This document shows, piece by piece, positions 11,900-16,698 of a stretch of DNA of 64,000 bases (its first letter is position 1; every line of letters begins with the position of its first letter). Origin of the DNA: a virus (lineage: Duplodnaviria; Heunggongvirae; Uroviricota; Caudoviricetes). The DNA lies in the IMG/VR virus record IMGVR_UViG_2778261164_000001, positions 20,803 through 84,802 of that record. One strand, 5' to 3'. The notes beneath the pieces were generated by a model. It did not search any database and was not told the origin of the DNA. It saw only the letters and a program-made list of their open reading frames with translations. The position numbers and the translations under genes are program-made.

Positions 11900-12055
11900 G
11901 TGTCATCCAAGGTTAATTATGAGTCGCTGGCATCGGTCATGCCGCGTAATGAACAGGAAACAGATGCTGTAGTGGACCCTGTAATCGCTGAAATGAATGC
12001 TCGCCTGGAGGCTGAATTTGCAGCTGAGAATGAACATACCACCCAGGGCGACTAG
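11900..12055 (+). CDS. small hypothetical protein
   Basis: GTG with GGGAGA RBS; 51 aa; the track ORF 11867-12055 shortened to the RBS-supported start. Confidence 0.3.
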   Translation: MSSKVNYESLASVMPRNEQETDAVVDPVIAEMNARLEAEFAAENEHTTQGD

Positions 12056-12659
12056 GACTGTTTTTTGTGTCGGTAGCGGTCCTTCACTCACTCGTGAGGA
12101 CTGTGCTGCTATAGAAAAAACTGGCTGTTCAATCATCGCGGTTAACAATTCCTGGCAGATGTTCGATGACATTTATGCCTTATACGCCGGTGATTTGTCA
12201 TGGTGGAAGCAATACGGTTCCACCATACCGGGAGGGAGGTTCCGCAAAGTGACAGCCAACCTGGCAGCGGCGAAATCATTTTCGTTGGAGTACAGGCGAT
12301 ATTGTGGACCGGCGGAAGGGGTAAATAGCGGCGCGCAGGCTATCAGTCTGGCGGCTGAATCAGGGGCTGAAGTAGTTGTATTAGTCGGCTATGACTGTTC
12401 TCTGCAAAACGGCCTTCATTGGCATGGGGCGCACCCTCAAGCACTACGGAATCCAACGCAGGTATCTATTTCAAAATGGCAACAGCAGTTCCTGGATACC
12501 CGCAAAAAACACGCAGATTTACATATTTTGAATGCAAGTAGGAGCAGTGCAATTCAATGTTTCCCAAGAATAAATTTAGAGGCAGTGATCGCGTTATTAT
12601 CGTCGGCAGTGGCCCAAGCGCCGCAAACTTTGTTGCGCCGCGCGGAGTGCCGATTATAG
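11997..12659 (+). CDS. GSGPS-motif protein (DUF115/Maf-like putative transferase)
   Basis: VFCVGSGPS...IIAVNNSW motif; paralogous to the next gene; start uncertain, C-terminal tail overlaps the paralog. Confidence 0.45.
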   Translation: MLAWRLNLQLRMNIPPRATRTVFCVGSGPSLTREDCAAIEKTGCSIIAVNNSWQMFDDIYALYAGDLSWWKQYGSTIPGGRFRKVTANLAAAKSFSLEYRRYCGPAEGVNSGAQAISLAAESGAEVVVLVGYDCSLQNGLHWHGAHPQALRNPTQVSISKWQQQFLDTRKKHADLHILNASRSSAIQCFPRINLEAVIALLSSAVAQAPQTLLRRAECRL

Positions 12660-13183
12660 CGGTCAATGGGGCCATCGACTGGCTTAACCGCGCTTCTTAT
12701 TTTTTCACACTTGATCCATCGCCAGACAATATGCGGCGCGTTGGTCGTGGCCGCCGTCGCCGTGGTGTTTGTTATTGCATGGCACTACCCGATGTTAAAG
12801 AACGTGAAGTCAGAGATGGCGTTCTGTGCTTCCGTCGTGTGGCTGAACGCGGCACGGAGCCAAAAAATACGAATTCTCCCGAGTGGTGGGCGTGGCGCTG
12901 GTCCGCACATTTCGGCCTTTGCGAAGATGAGAATGAAATTGCCAGCGGCAATAGTGCATATGGTGCTCTGAACCTGGCTTTCCATATCGGATTCAAACAT
13001 GTAGCCCTGGTGGGCGTTGACGCTACGCAAGAACCACGCGTTCACTCCGGCGGCACGCCAAAAAATCTAAGTCACCTGCCTTTGTTATTCCAGTCTGCGC
13101 GTGAACAGATTGACGTTGTTTCATGCGGGAAAATGGGAGGTATTCCGCAGATGACTCTTAAAGAATGGCTGAAGAATACATGA
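12557..13183 (+). CDS. GSGPS-motif protein, paralog of the preceding gene
   Basis: [10 protein letters not shown]...[10 protein letters not shown] mirrors the upstream paralog; overlaps it by about 100 nt in another frame. Confidence 0.45.
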
Positions 13184-13857
13184 TGGCACCCACAATTTAT
13201 CACCGTATCGACGGTACCAAATACAGGAATGTCTGGGTTGTTGGTGATCTGCATGGTTGCTACACCAGACTGATGTCCGAACTCCATCGTGTGGATTTTG
13301 ACCCGGCGCAGGATTTACTGATATCGGTCGGCGACCTTATCGATCGCGGTACTGAAAATGTCGAATGTCTGGAACTATTGCAGATGCCCTGGTTCAGGGC
13401 AGTGATGGGGAACCATGAGCGGTTGATGCTCGATGCGTTAAGTCCTGATGGCAACGTGAATAACTGGCTAATGAATGGTGGACAATGGTTCTTCATGTTG
13501 GACACTGATCAGGAAATATTAGCCAGGGTGCTGGTGGAGCTGGTAAGACGTCTGCCCTATATCATTGAGTTGAACACCGGGCAAGAAACTATCGTTATAG
13601 CCCATGCCGACTATCCGGATAATGAATATCAATTCGGTAAGGAGGTGCCGCTTTTCAACGTTGTCTGGGCGCGCGAGCGTATCAGTGATTCGATGGATGA
13701 TATTGGTGGCGAAATTTCTGGCGCAGATCGTTTTATCTTTGGTCACACTCCGGTGAAAAGCCCGAAGACATTCTGGAATCAGCATTATATCGACACTGGT
13801 GCCGTATTTTGCGGAAACCTGACATTGATGAAAGTGAAAGGTGATGGTGCAGCATGA
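13180..13857 (+). CDS. ppp: serine/threonine protein phosphatase, lambda PPase family
   Basis: Near-collinear with lambda phosphatase as recalled: [37 protein letters not shown] metallophosphoesterase motifs. Confidence 0.85.
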
Positions 13858-14555
13858 AGATTGCTTTAGTTCTTCGCTCTGGTGGTGACTATAACGCTTC
13901 CGATGTGCAGTGGCTGGTTAATCAACTGCCAAAAGGCTATGAAATTATTTGCCTGACAGACCTGAAGCGTTTACATGTACCTGGCGTCAAAGTTGTCCCA
14001 TTGATCAACCAGTGGCAAAAGTGCCGTGGCTGGTGGGCGAAAATCGAGTTGTTCCGACCGGATATAACCGATGATCTGTTCTATCTGGATTTGGACACAG
14101 TTATTGCCGGTGATATACGCCCAATCCTTGAGAATCCACCAACCAGCTTCACCATGCTTAGGGATTTTTACCATCCACAATATCGTGGTAGCGGTGCCCT
14201 GTGGATACCAAATAGTGTAAAAGCACATATCTGGAGTTCATTCTGGCAAGATCCGGAAGGTTGGATTTCTCGTTGTGTCACTACTGAGTGCTGGGGTGAT
14301 CAGGGGTTCTTACGGAAGGTTATGGGCGATGATACACCAGCATTTCAGGATCTGTATCCAGGATGGTTTGTAAGTTACAAGGCCGATGTTGTGGAACCTG
14401 GTTCAAAATATGCGAGCGCGCGTTACTCCAGGGGGAATGGGACATTACCAAAGGACTGCCGAATAATCTTTTTCCACGGCAAACCGCGGCCTCGCGAAGT
14501 GTCAGAGGATTGGCTTCCCCTCATTAGCTCGTTTTTTGAGCGAGAATCAGAATAA
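13854..14555 (+). CDS. hypothetical protein (weak DxD-like motif YLDLDTVI)
   Basis: 233-aa ORF coupled to the phosphatase gene (ATGA overlap). Confidence 0.5.
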
Positions 14556-14855: not shown

Positions 14856-14856
14856 A

Positions 14857-16119
14857 ATGAGCACTTCAGCACAAAACCAATCAATCGAAAATGTATCTAT
14901 TCCTGATGTCCTGAATGCCGGTATTCCGGCCATTATCCAGAACATCCGGGCCGCGCAACGCCGCGTTAGTTGTGATGACCTCACAGCACGTTTTTTTGAT
15001 AATGCGGTTCAGTCAGCGGAGATGCTTCACGCACAGCTTATTGATGTTTATAACGCAGAAGCTGATAGCCATAACTCCCTGGTAGATGCAGCTGAAAATA
15101 TGCAGTTGGATCTCGGTCTGAAGGGTAAAGAAATTGAAGAGCTTCAGCTGGAAATTGAACATTTGAAACGCCAGCAACAGGACGCGATCGAAGATGCGAC
15201 GCATGACGCCAACCAGCGTGCTGATAATGCCGAACGTATAAGCATTGAGCTGGAAACAAAACTCAATGAAATGACCGCGATGGTTGTGCTGCGGAACTCA
15301 CAGATTTCAACTCTAAAATCTCAATATAAAGAGATCATGAAACTTGATCCTTTTAACCTTGAGAAACGCTATAACAAAGCTAAAAGCGAGCGACAGGAAC
15401 TGCGTAAGCAGGTCGCCGACCTTAACCAACAGCTCAAAAAAACTATTAAAGATGCAAGCGAGGCGCGCGTGGCATTTGCTAATAAAAAAGCAGAGGTTAC
15501 CGCGCTGGTTAATGAGAATGCCAAATTTGCGACGCTCAAGAAGGAAATGTATGGCATTACTGAGCGCCGTTTCCCTGCAAGCAAACTTCATCCGACGTTA
15601 GGGCAAATCTCCTTCTTCCCGCGCCTCCTGGCTTATGGGATCTCATCGCCTAAAGAGTTCAATAACGAGCGTCCTTATATCGTTTCTAAGCTGGACTTTG
15701 CTTATCAGTTCTGCTGCGACATGGGCTATGCCATTGATATCCGAATCAACGAATGGTTGATGCCAAACTTCCAGCCGTTGGCAATTTTCCGCGAGTTCCA
15801 GCCGGAAGGTTGGGTAGAGTTCTTCCATGAATTGATCTGTAAAGAAATGGAAAGCCGCCGCCCGGAATTGGTCCGTCGAGTTGAGTGGGCGCAAGAGGTT
15901 ATGTTGGCAGATGCAGAGCTGCCGTTCGAACCGGAATTCATTGATGATCTGGCAACTAAAGGGTTGCATACCCTGTTTGATGTGGTTACCCGCCGTCATG
16001 AGCAGTTGGTTGTCGAATTGGGTTTAGAGAAAACAGCGGCAAGAAGACTTCTTGATGTTTGCTATGCACGTAGCGATGCATGGGAAAAAGAGAACGGCGG
16101 CACTATTTACGTTCGCTGA
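14857..16119 (+). CDS. hypothetical protein with N-terminal coiled coil
   Basis: 420 aa; residues about 60-230 are heptad-rich (Glu/Leu/Lys/Gln); distinct C-terminal globular region. Confidence 0.55.
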   Translation: MSTSAQNQSIENVSIPDVLNAGIPAIIQNIRAAQRRVSCDDLTARFFDNAVQSAEMLHAQLIDVYNAEADSHNSLVDAAENMQLDLGLKGKEIEELQLEIEHLKRQQQDAIEDATHDANQRADNAERISIELETKLNEMTAMVVLRNSQISTLKSQYKEIMKLDPFNLEKRYNKAKSERQELRKQVADLNQQLKKTIKDASEARVAFANKKAEVTALVNENAKFATLKKEMYGITERRFPASKLHPTLGQISFFPRLLAYGISSPKEFNNERPYIVSKLDFAYQFCCDMGYAIDIRINEWLMPNFQPLAIFREFQPEGWVEFFHELICKEMESRRPELVRRVEWAQEVMLADAELPFEPEFIDDLATKGLHTLFDVVTRRHEQLVVELGLEKTAARRLLDVCYARSDAWEKENGGTIYVR

Positions 16120-16191
16120 TAGTTACAGTGTCACTTTTAATGCTGGTGGAGTGCGCCCACCAGCATTTTTTTCGTCCAATGAGGAGGGCAT

Positions 16192-16698
16192 TTGAGTATT
16201 TTCAATAAACACGCACGCCAGGAACGTCCGTACATCGTCATAGTAGATATTGATGGGACGATATCAGAGGCAACGGAAGACAGGCTGCATTTGCTTCCAC
16301 CACCAGGTAAAGGTGCATTAACAAAGGACTGGAACGAGTTTAATCTCGCCTGTGACACCGATACTCCCATCACTCCAGTTATTGATATGGTGCGCCAGTT
16401 ATTTAACGTTTACACGGTCTGGTTTGTAACCGGGCGCTGTGAGATCGCAAGGGATAAAACACGAGCTTGGCTGCGGAAGTACGTAACAAACGGGGCTGAG
16501 CCTTTGCTATCTATGCGTCCTGCCACCGATGACAGAAATGACGGCCCAGCAAAGATTGATCTCCTTAAGAAAATTGGTCTAAGTAAAATTGCGTTCGCGC
16601 TGGAAGATAAGATTGAAGTGGCGCGTGTTTTCAGGAGACACGGCGTACTTACGTTAATGGTCAGGGAGTATGAAAATGCGCTTCTCCATCAGCAATAA
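16192..16698 (+). CDS. HAD-superfamily phosphatase (candidate P1 pap-like acid phosphatase)
   Basis: HAD motif I VIVDIDGTI near the N-terminus; TTG start with GGAGGG RBS. Confidence 0.6.
   Translation: MSIFNKHARQERPYIVIVDIDGTISEATEDRLHLLPPPGKGALTKDWNEFNLACDTDTPITPVIDMVRQLFNVYTVWFVTGRCEIARDKTRAWLRKYVTNGAEPLLSMRPATDDRNDGPAKIDLLKKIGLSKIAFALEDKIEVARVFRRHGVLTLMVREYENALLHQQ

Follow-up and report, generated by a model that had tools for sequence, protein, structure and literature searches.

PmgO, PmgP and PmgQ of phage P1 as a candidate glycosylation module shared by diverse prophages

Maf flagellin glycosyltransferases modify a protein in the cytoplasm, and they share with the sialyltransferases Cst-I and Cst-II a Rossmann-like fold, an N-terminal G-x-G-P-S nucleotide-binding loop and a following (T/N)SG...G-x-D region. 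Glycogenin, Dictyostelium AgtA and pneumococcal GlyE are GT8 enzymes that carry a GT-A signature with an invariant DxD motif. Among phages, glycosyltransferases encoded by mycobacteriophages reportedly glycosylate virions (Freeman et al. 2023, Cell Host & Microbe). Here we describe the gene block that runs from pmgN through pap (positions 11900-16698) in a 64,000-nucleotide stretch of a tailed phage (Caudoviricetes; IMG/VR record IMGVR_UViG_2778261164_000001, positions 20,803 to 84,802), which we call the window. Three of its genes, pmgO, pmgP and pmgQ, code for proteins that resemble these enzymes. What is new here is that the three constitute a mobile module, which travels apart from the phosphatase genes beside them, occurs in unrelated prophages and has undergone natural fusions.

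The block itself is already known, its genes having been annotated since the 2004 P1 genome. The P1 reference (NC_005856 / AF234172, 79495-84293) carries pmgN, pmgO, pmgP, ppp, pmgQ, pmgR, pmgS and pap collinearly with the window, and P7 homologs of genes in the P1 block are named hdmB, hdmC, hdmD and shtB. By megablast, window positions 11000-17700 (6.6 kb) are 97.8-98.4% identical over the full length to P1, P7, SJ46 and RCS47. Nucleotide identity to P1 is 97-100% gene by gene, gene order, lengths and overlaps equal those of the reference, and the curated P1 annotation transfers base for base. Only point differences separate the window from the P1 reference within the block. The C1 operators Op83, Op86a/b and Op88 also occupy homologous positions in the two, and together with the collinear orthologs they place the block in the pmgN-pap block of Punavirus. 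RefSeq records label these genes 'alpha-2,3-sialyltransferase', 'glycosyltransferase' and 'metallophosphoesterase'. As a feature of the window the block therefore adds little, given this long-standing annotation and the existence of deletion mutants without a plaque defect. The remaining interest lies in the function of a conserved, mobile PmgO/PmgP/PmgQ module in the late and structural gene clusters of phages from several phyla.

An earlier inspection of the window, made from its letters alone and called here the sequence-only reading, had singled out two overlapping paralogs, a lambda-type phosphatase, a protein with a DxD-like motif and a HAD phosphatase. The open reading frames and motifs that it described are all in place. 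Three genes in or at the same interval went unmentioned, namely pmgR and pmgS, which lie inside it, and pmgN, which overlaps the start of pmgO.

Evidence for a functional unit comes from a tblastn survey with the P1 proteins across 26 diverse loci. The three proteins PmgO, PmgP and PmgQ are found together in Enterobacterales, in other Gammaproteobacteria, in Alpha- and Betaproteobacteria and in one Bacteroidota genome, and PmgP occurs with PmgQ in a Gemmatimonadota genome. Loci from Citrobacter, Pseudomonas, Zhongshania, Commensalibacter, Methylophilaceae, Brevundimonas, Sinomicrobium and Alloalcanivorax carry the trio with neither ppp nor pap, and among the 26 loci these two genes occur only in P1-like elements. 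Because ppp and pap are confined in this way, the trio is best viewed as the functional unit and the phosphatases as neighbors specific to the P1 lineage. The PmgP family comprises 574 clusters at 50% identity in a scan of 1.84 billion representative proteins. A scan of IMG/VR with the PmgP profile gave only near-identical P1-like contigs, which were used for the census of gene overlaps described below and not to assess diversity.

Natural fusions between members of the module occur among these clusters and were confirmed by local profile searches. These include PmgP-PmgQ (P0300 and P0369), PmgQ-PmgP (P0385), PmgQ-PmgP-methyltransferase (P0347) and PmgO-PmgP (P0051) proteins. In a further fusion, P0383, a methyltransferase precedes PmgP, although this N-terminal domain was read from the sequence and is not confirmed by a profile. 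The fusions are good comparative evidence that the trio shares one pathway, probably as a complex. A methyltransferase dependent on S-adenosylmethionine is inserted in or fused to the module in L113/L114 (9573-10133), L095 (6570-7139) and P0347, an association that suggests methylated sugars in the product.

The module recurs beside genes of the lytic cycle. The gene for an HK97-type major capsid protein directly precedes it in Pseudomonas and Zhongshania prophages, where head-completion genes follow, and in an Ochrobactrum prophage the PmgP-PmgQ pair is located one gene after the capsid gene. These capsid-adjacent cases make up three lineages: L110, with PmgO, PmgP and PmgQ; L111, with PmgP and PmgQ only and one non-PmgO gene after the capsid gene; and L095. 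Elsewhere the module follows the lysis cassette (three prophages: L003, L004 and L113), sits between a Q antiterminator gene and lysis genes (L116), or is found after TerL or near a Mu-F-like head gene (L096 and L101). The common positional theme appears to be lytic-cycle expression beside structural genes.

Other occurrences depart from intact prophage contexts. Remnants of the module remain beside phage lysozyme genes, and one chromosomal pair resembling PmgP and PmgQ has no phage context. On chromosomes of the Pseudescherichia type and other Enterobacteriaceae (L089-L093; for example L089, 1357-7248), the trio flanks giant inverse-autotransporter/invasin adhesins, which carry many Big_1 domains and measure 1178, 999 and 494 amino acids. 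These loci may represent a dedicated adhesin glycosylation island outside phage.

The pmgQ gene (13854-14555, plus strand) codes for a putative glycosyltransferase of the GT8-like, GT-A type. A profile built from 52 homologs matches the solved GT8 enzymes AgtA (6mw5, E=9e-8), glycogenin (E=3e-5) and GlyE (5gvv, E=5e-4), and residues D79, L80 and D81 (nucleotides 14088-14096) are invariant in all 52. The DxD-like motif noticed in the sequence-only reading therefore sits in a protein that combines a GT-A signature, an invariant DxD and significant profile similarity to solved GT8 enzymes. PmgQ also falls in phrog_1962, 'glycosyltransferase'. However, it is shorter (about 230 amino acids) than glycogenin, AgtA and GlyE, and it has no Pfam match even at E<=10, so that the cutoff of PF01501 (Glyco_transf_8) is not reached. 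The lipopolysaccharide (LPS) enzymes WaaO and WaaJ are more distant from it. These comparisons portray PmgQ as a divergent GT8 relative rather than a canonical member.

The pmgO gene (11997-12659, plus strand) codes for a putative DUF115/MptE-like (GT42-like) glycosyltransferase of 220 amino acids, identical in amino-acid sequence to P1 PmgO, with GSGPS at residues 26-30 (nucleotides 12072-12086). The pmgP gene (12557-13183, plus strand) codes for a protein of 208 amino acids with a predicted DUF115/Maf-like fold and GSGPS at residues 17-21 (nucleotides 12605-12619). The paralogy noted for this pair in the sequence-only reading is real, yet remote. By BLASTP the two proteins are 39% identical over 36 amino acids (E=0.003), in the N-terminal motif region only. 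When the family profiles (41 PmgO and 49 PmgP homologs) are aligned by hhalign, the match extends over 164 columns with 97.9% probability, E=3.7e-13 and 26% identity. PmgO and PmgP are thus true but ancient paralogs.

AlphaFold2 models built from the alignments have pLDDT values of 86.9 for PmgO and 94.6 for PmgP, and they were compared by Foldseek with the PDB and also with viral structures. The top PDB match of PmgP is the Maf flagellin glycosyltransferase 5mu5 (probability 1.00, TM 0.55), followed by the archaeal MptE pyrophosphokinase 8sd5 and then by a run of Campylobacter Cst-I and Cst-II sialyltransferases (probability 0.8-0.89). A fold shared with solved PF01973 members is seen for PmgP with 5mu5 and 8sd5 (probability 1.00 for each) and for PmgO with 8sd5 (E 1.9e-4 to 1.5e-3 overall). 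The transferase fold that had been suggested for the paralogs is therefore borne out at the level of predicted structure, as a DUF115/MptE-like fold common to Maf flagellin glycosyltransferases and GT42 sialyltransferases. The PmgO profile places GSGPS, NSG and GYDC in the same succession as GNGPS and TSG...GID of Cst-II (Cst-II residues 3-63 and 119-158), at a non-significant E of about 0.4. In PHROGs, PmgO belongs to phrog_4603, 'alpha-2,3-sialyltransferase' (4e-74), and the PmgP family is of unknown function. Unlike Maf enzymes, PmgO and PmgP consist of the catalytic core of roughly 200 amino acids only, lack the flanking Maf domains, and form a paralog pair that is overlapping or fused. 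Searches of the PDB by single sequence returned nothing significant for PmgO, PmgP or PmgQ, nor did a search with the PmgP profile, and no NCBIfam model matched these three proteins or Pap.

The annotated start of pmgO probably needs correcting. The annotated ATG at 11997 has no Shine-Dalgarno sequence, whereas a TTG at 12018 sits 6 nucleotides after GGAGG (12007-12011), and the N-termini of PmgO homologs align at residues 7-8. On these grounds the true start is probably TTG 12018, which would yield a protein of 213 amino acids. Public records differ on this gene, with some clusters shortened to 161-174 amino acids and no pmgO call in MH422554.

We propose, with middling confidence, that PmgO, PmgP and PmgQ act jointly as a cytoplasmic glycosylation module. 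As a single complex or pathway, the three proteins would build a short glycan in the cytoplasm of infected bacteria, drawing on nucleotide sugars of the host. The acceptor would most likely be a phage-made protein, probably a virion protein, because the module sits in lytic-cycle gene clusters with capsid, lysis, TerL and Q neighbors. In a more specific version, to which we give a rather low probability, the glycan would be placed late in infection on capsid or other virion proteins, and it might start from CMP-Kdo, the cytidine monophosphate-activated form of 3-deoxy-D-manno-octulosonic acid (Kdo). Such decoration would change the virion surface, and with it immune recognition, stability or adsorption to debris, and would leave laboratory plaquing unaffected. 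The closest solved relatives of PmgQ and PmgP, namely AgtA, glycogenin, GlyE and Maf, all glycosylate proteins. The sequence-only reading had suggested that the whole cluster may modify host or virion components, and this may be a reasonable idea for PmgO, PmgP and PmgQ but not for the phosphatases, since ppp and pap accompany the trio in P1-like phages alone.

Like the proposed module, the mycobacteriophage system reportedly employs phage-encoded cytoplasmic glycosyltransferases that act on capsid and tail proteins and are dispensable for plaques. It differs from the P1 trio in its enzyme families and its Actinobacteria hosts. If P1 virions are glycosylated, capsid glycosylation, so far shown for mycobacteriophages, would extend to this coliphage, which would matter for the immunogenicity of phages and for P1 as a vehicle for delivery. 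A broader suggestion is that the trio is the founding example of a virion-protein glycosylation system of Gram-negative tailed phages, composed of a GT42/Maf-like pair plus a GT8 enzyme and, in some cases, a methyltransferase; we regard this extension as doubtful.

The function of the module would be accessory and not morphogenetic. In-frame deletion of pmgN, pmgO, pmgP, pmgQ, pmgS, ppp or pap leaves both plaquing and antirestriction intact (Gonzales et al. 2022, PMC9024508), and knock-down by CRISPR interference agrees with non-essentiality (PMC10695390). Thus, the old label 'putative morphogenetic function' is unsupported. The pmgN gene was scored as essential by CRISPR interference (plating efficiency about 1e-2), yet its in-frame deletion is viable and the genes downstream are non-essential (PMC10695390). 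The existing ΔpmgO, ΔpmgP and ΔpmgQ phages make virion glycosylation directly testable.

Several observations weigh against the proposed glycosylation module. None of the P1 virion proteins has been reported to carry a glycan, and glycosylation is unmentioned both in the P1 cryo-electron microscopy papers, among them one on the virion (3.2 Å, with capsid, connector and baseplate modeled and tail fibers unresolved), and in the P1 virion proteomics paper. The P1 trio may be early rather than strictly late, since it lies behind a C1-repressed sigma-70 promoter, and gene position is circumstantial evidence for a target. The Foldseek E-values against the PDB are marginal (1e-3 to 1e-4, with TM of 0.42-0.55), and the best structural match of PmgO is a pyrophosphokinase and not a glycosyltransferase: archaeal 8sd5 (probability 1.00, E=1.9e-4, TM 0.42), followed by thiamin pyrophosphokinase 3k94 and human sialyltransferase 6apj. 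The PmgO-PmgP fusion is present on one assembled contig only. Neither PmgO (23.4 bits) nor PmgP (20.9 bits) reaches the Pfam gathering threshold of PF01973, MptE-like/DUF115 (34.6 bits). At 44.6 bits the fused homolog passes it, and a precomputed PF01973 match is recorded for many homologs, so the family link holds at the profile level, with the window proteins alone below the cutoff. Literature on DUF115 in connection with phage, and on glycosylated phage capsids, yielded nothing relevant.

The trio might instead remodel the host envelope, which we consider unlikely. PmgO and PmgP would then be WaaZ/GT42-like transferases of an ulosonic acid, for example from CMP-Kdo, PmgQ would be a GT8 enzyme like WaaO or WaaJ, and the LPS core, which is the P1 receptor, would be altered during lytic growth. 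A core altered in this way would reduce superinfection, or reduce how many progeny phage are lost on cell debris. Glycosyltransferase cassettes of prophages that change LPS are well known. CMP-Kdo is the only CMP-activated sugar known in Escherichia coli K-12, and that strain is not known to have a CMP-sialic or CMP-pseudaminic acid donor. The PmgQ profile aligns by hhalign with E. coli WaaO over 146 columns (49% probability, E=1.7e-4), the PmgO-PmgP fusion homolog has a 'faint' precomputed match to PF27901 (WaaZ_KDO_III), and the PmgO and PmgP profiles align an equivalent NSG...G-x-D region with E. coli WaaZ. However, these WaaZ alignments are weak (probability 16% with the profile of PmgP and 13.5% with that of PmgO) and cover only the helix-strand-G-x-D region. 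Genomic context argues further against an envelope target. In three lineages the module is the direct downstream neighbor of the capsid gene, and it has no membrane or flippase partners such as GtrA/B. It resides in late or structural operons and is C1-repressed in P1, so it would be silent in lysogens, unlike classical seroconversion cassettes. In addition, LPS made within one lytic cycle would be expected to replace little of the existing surface.

The predicted folds alone do not decide between sugar and pyrophosphoryl transfer for PmgO and PmgP. A further possibility is that these two proteins are not glycosyltransferases at all. They could be enzymes like MptE or thiamin pyrophosphokinase, or other nucleotide-utilizing enzymes, and in P1 they might join Ppp and Pap in a metabolite or signaling pathway. 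This possibility is favored by the ranking of 8sd5, an archaeal 6-hydroxymethyl-7,8-dihydropterin pyrophosphokinase (HPPK; MptE), and of 3k94 as the leading matches of PmgO, by the second place of 8sd5 for PmgP, by an MptE-like family as the sole Pfam match, and by the presence of two phosphatases in the block. We find it quite improbable, however, since the top match of PmgP is a Maf glycosyltransferase ahead of many Cst-I and Cst-II entries and the motifs follow the order of the CMP-binding motifs of Cst-II. Moreover, a GT8 glycosyltransferase and methyltransferases of the sugar type recur as fusion partners or neighbors of the PmgP domain, and every locus that is not P1-like lacks ppp and pap.

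The overlap between pmgO and pmgP (12557-12659, plus strand) spans 103 nucleotides, in keeping with the length of roughly 100 in the sequence-only reading, and comprises the 3' end of pmgO and the 5' end of pmgP, including the pmgP GSGPS motif. The pmgP frame is -1 (+2) relative to that of pmgO. All of 82 P1-like loci taken from IMG/VR and from genomes in GTDB encode a PmgP of 208 amino acids, keep an open PmgO frame and have an overlap of exactly 103 nucleotides; five distinct overlap sequences are represented. The pmgP start also falls inside pmgO in relatives at 40-73% amino-acid identity, where the overlap measures 94 nucleotides in a Citrobacter rodentium prophage, 49 in a Pantoea P1-like plasmid-phage, 13 in a Zhongshania prophage and 7 in a Brevundimonas prophage. 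The extra length in P1 corresponds to a non-conserved, low-confidence C-terminal tail of PmgO. On a 62-kb contig (L003), pmgO and pmgP are fused in frame to encode a protein of 376 amino acids.

Overlaps are present at every junction from pmgN through pmgQ, and this tight packing fits translational coupling. The pmgN/pmgO, pmgO/pmgP, pmgP/ppp and ppp/pmgQ overlaps would all serve this purpose. For pmgO and pmgP, coupling would provide matched amounts of two subunits that other phages fuse.

A programmed -1 ribosomal frameshift within the overlap could, in principle, yield a PmgO-PmgP fusion in P1 like the 376-residue protein that occurs naturally in another phage. A canonical X_XXY_YYZ heptamer, A_AAT_TTA, is indeed present in the PmgO frame at 12572-12578, and a slip there would enter the PmgP frame at codon 6. 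However, the heptamer is not conserved: the overlap of the Citrobacter prophage contains no slippery heptamer of any kind, and those in the Pantoea P1-like phage occur only at other positions. Such a sequence is calculated to arise by chance in 34 codons about 13% of the time. The downstream RNA is not unusually structured (z=-0.03), and PmgP has its own ATG with AGGAG 12 nucleotides upstream. The predicted fusion would also lose a C-terminal PmgO helix, 'LE..(V/A)L', that is conserved and is retained in the natural fusion. We rejected programmed frameshifting on the basis of the non-conserved heptamer, the lack of downstream structure and the loss of this helix, and judge it very improbable.

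Although 103 nucleotides is unusually long for an out-of-frame overlap of bacterial or phage genes, the sequencing or assembly frameshift or recent tandem duplication suspected in the sequence-only reading is almost certainly not its cause, since all 82 independent P1-like loci and the curated P1 reference have the same architecture with both frames intact, overlaps persist in the more distant relatives, each frame encodes a complete domain with its own N-terminal GSGPS, and the two families are only 26% identical and both span several distant phyla.

The two phosphatases are readily classified. The ppp gene (13165-13857, plus strand) codes for a lambda-type Ser/Thr phosphatase of the PPP family, as the sequence-only reading had recognized. 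Residues 11-229 of Ppp align with residues 3-221 of the lambda phosphatase 1G5B over the full length (E=5e-94), the metal-binding motifs GDLHG (27-31), GDLIDRG (56-62) and GNHE (82-85) are all present, and the Pfam Metallophos match has an E-value of 1.4e-15. Unlike lambda NinI, Ppp is not encoded in a nin region, and comparison among the loci indicates that ppp was inserted between pmgP and pmgQ in the P1 lineage only. The final base of the pmgP stop codon doubles as the first base of an ATG at 13183, which is the ppp start given in MH422554. Because the lambda phosphatase aligns from residue 11 and this ATG abuts the pmgP stop, Ppp may have 224 amino acids, starting from 13183 with translational coupling to pmgP.

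The pap gene (16192-16698, plus strand) codes for a HAD phosphatase of 168 amino acids, again in agreement with the sequence-only reading, with DIDGT at residues 19-23. Pap belongs to phrog_415, scores 46.5 bits (E=5e-12) with Pfam PF25109 HAD_PNKP, above the cutoff of 27.6, and resembles the Pnkp1 phosphatase domain (4xrp, Pnkp1 residues 207-302, E=2.4e-4). It thus has HAD motif I and the phosphatase-domain family in common with T4 Pnk and Pnkp1, whereas the P-loop kinase domain of a bifunctional kinase-phosphatase is absent. Pap is therefore predicted to be a stand-alone HAD phosphatase of the T4-PNK/Pnkp 3'-phosphatase type, and records that name it a polynucleotide kinase overstate its function, because the kinase domain is absent. 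Nothing except position ties Ppp or Pap to the glycosyltransferases.

The remaining genes of the region were mapped from the P1 annotation. The pmgL (11007-11252) and pmgM (11255-11833; VRR-NUC domain) genes precede the block. The pmgN gene (11900-12055, plus strand) codes for 51 amino acids that are 100% identical to P1 PmgN and belong to phrog_2350, of unknown function. Between pmgQ and pap lie pmgR (14637-14855, plus strand) and pmgS (14857-16119, plus strand). This pair has only weak coiled-coil/SMC-like matches, and PADLOC gave no defense-system match apart from weak coiled-coil noise for PmgS. The gene that follows pap is pmgT.

The sequence-only reading had placed the genes from 11997 to 16698 in one C1-controlled operon. 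Control by C1 is supported, in that a scan allowing 3 mismatches to the consensus found 14 C1-operator-like sites in the window against 0.29 expected, and such sites flank the block. A single operon is not, since three operator sites and two terminator-like hairpins lie within or around the units. The block appears to comprise more than one transcription unit, with pmgO-pmgP-ppp-pmgQ, pmgR-pmgS and pap separate from one another. The first is preceded by a predicted sigma-70 promoter, PpmgN (11801-11827, plus strand), and by the operator Oppp/Op83 (11840-11856, minus strand), which has 4 mismatches to the consensus and was accordingly missed by the scan. The PpmgN -10 hexamer is CATGCT in the window and TATGCT in P1, and the last base of Op83 also differs; these changes might alter early expression of pmgN-pmgQ in this variant. 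Farther upstream, the late promoter LPpmgL (10900-10918, plus strand), annotated in P1 and identical in sequence in the window, precedes pmgL-pmgM. With no terminator-like site between pmgM and pmgN, read-through from LPpmgL may give late transcription of pmgN-pmgQ.

The operators Op86a (14557-14573, plus strand) and Op86b (14606-14622, minus strand) were found both in the P1 annotation and by the scan, and they flank the promoter PpmgR. They also bracket a terminator-like hairpin between pmgQ and pmgR (14582-14609; -13.4 kcal/mol, z=-5.65) that is followed by a run of U nucleotides. Between pmgS and pap, an 11-base-pair stem followed by U7 has the characteristics of an intrinsic terminator (16139-16167, plus strand; -18.1 kcal/mol, z=-4.0), and pap has no obvious promoter of its own in the 72-nucleotide gap after pmgS. 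The pmgT unit starts at the operator OpmgT/Op88 (16698-16714, plus strand), which is annotated in P1 and deviates from the consensus at one position.

Identity to the P1 reference stops near 17590-17615, from the 3' end of pmgT onward, and the P1 variant MH422554 matches the window throughout. The window pmgT codes for 241 amino acids versus 309 in P1, and different small open reading frames follow (about 17590-18700), so this segment looks like a mosaic replacement. In MH422554 the frame right after pmgT is labeled 'recombinational DNA repair protein', of the RecT type. Within the pmgT region, the sequence at about 17080-17420 is approximately 90% identical to the Yersinia phages vB_YpM_41 and vB_YpM_44. 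Farther along the window, patches at 22000-25000 and 37000-38000 have a GC content of 0.35-0.40, compared with about 0.48 elsewhere, which suggests that they are acquired or mosaic segments.

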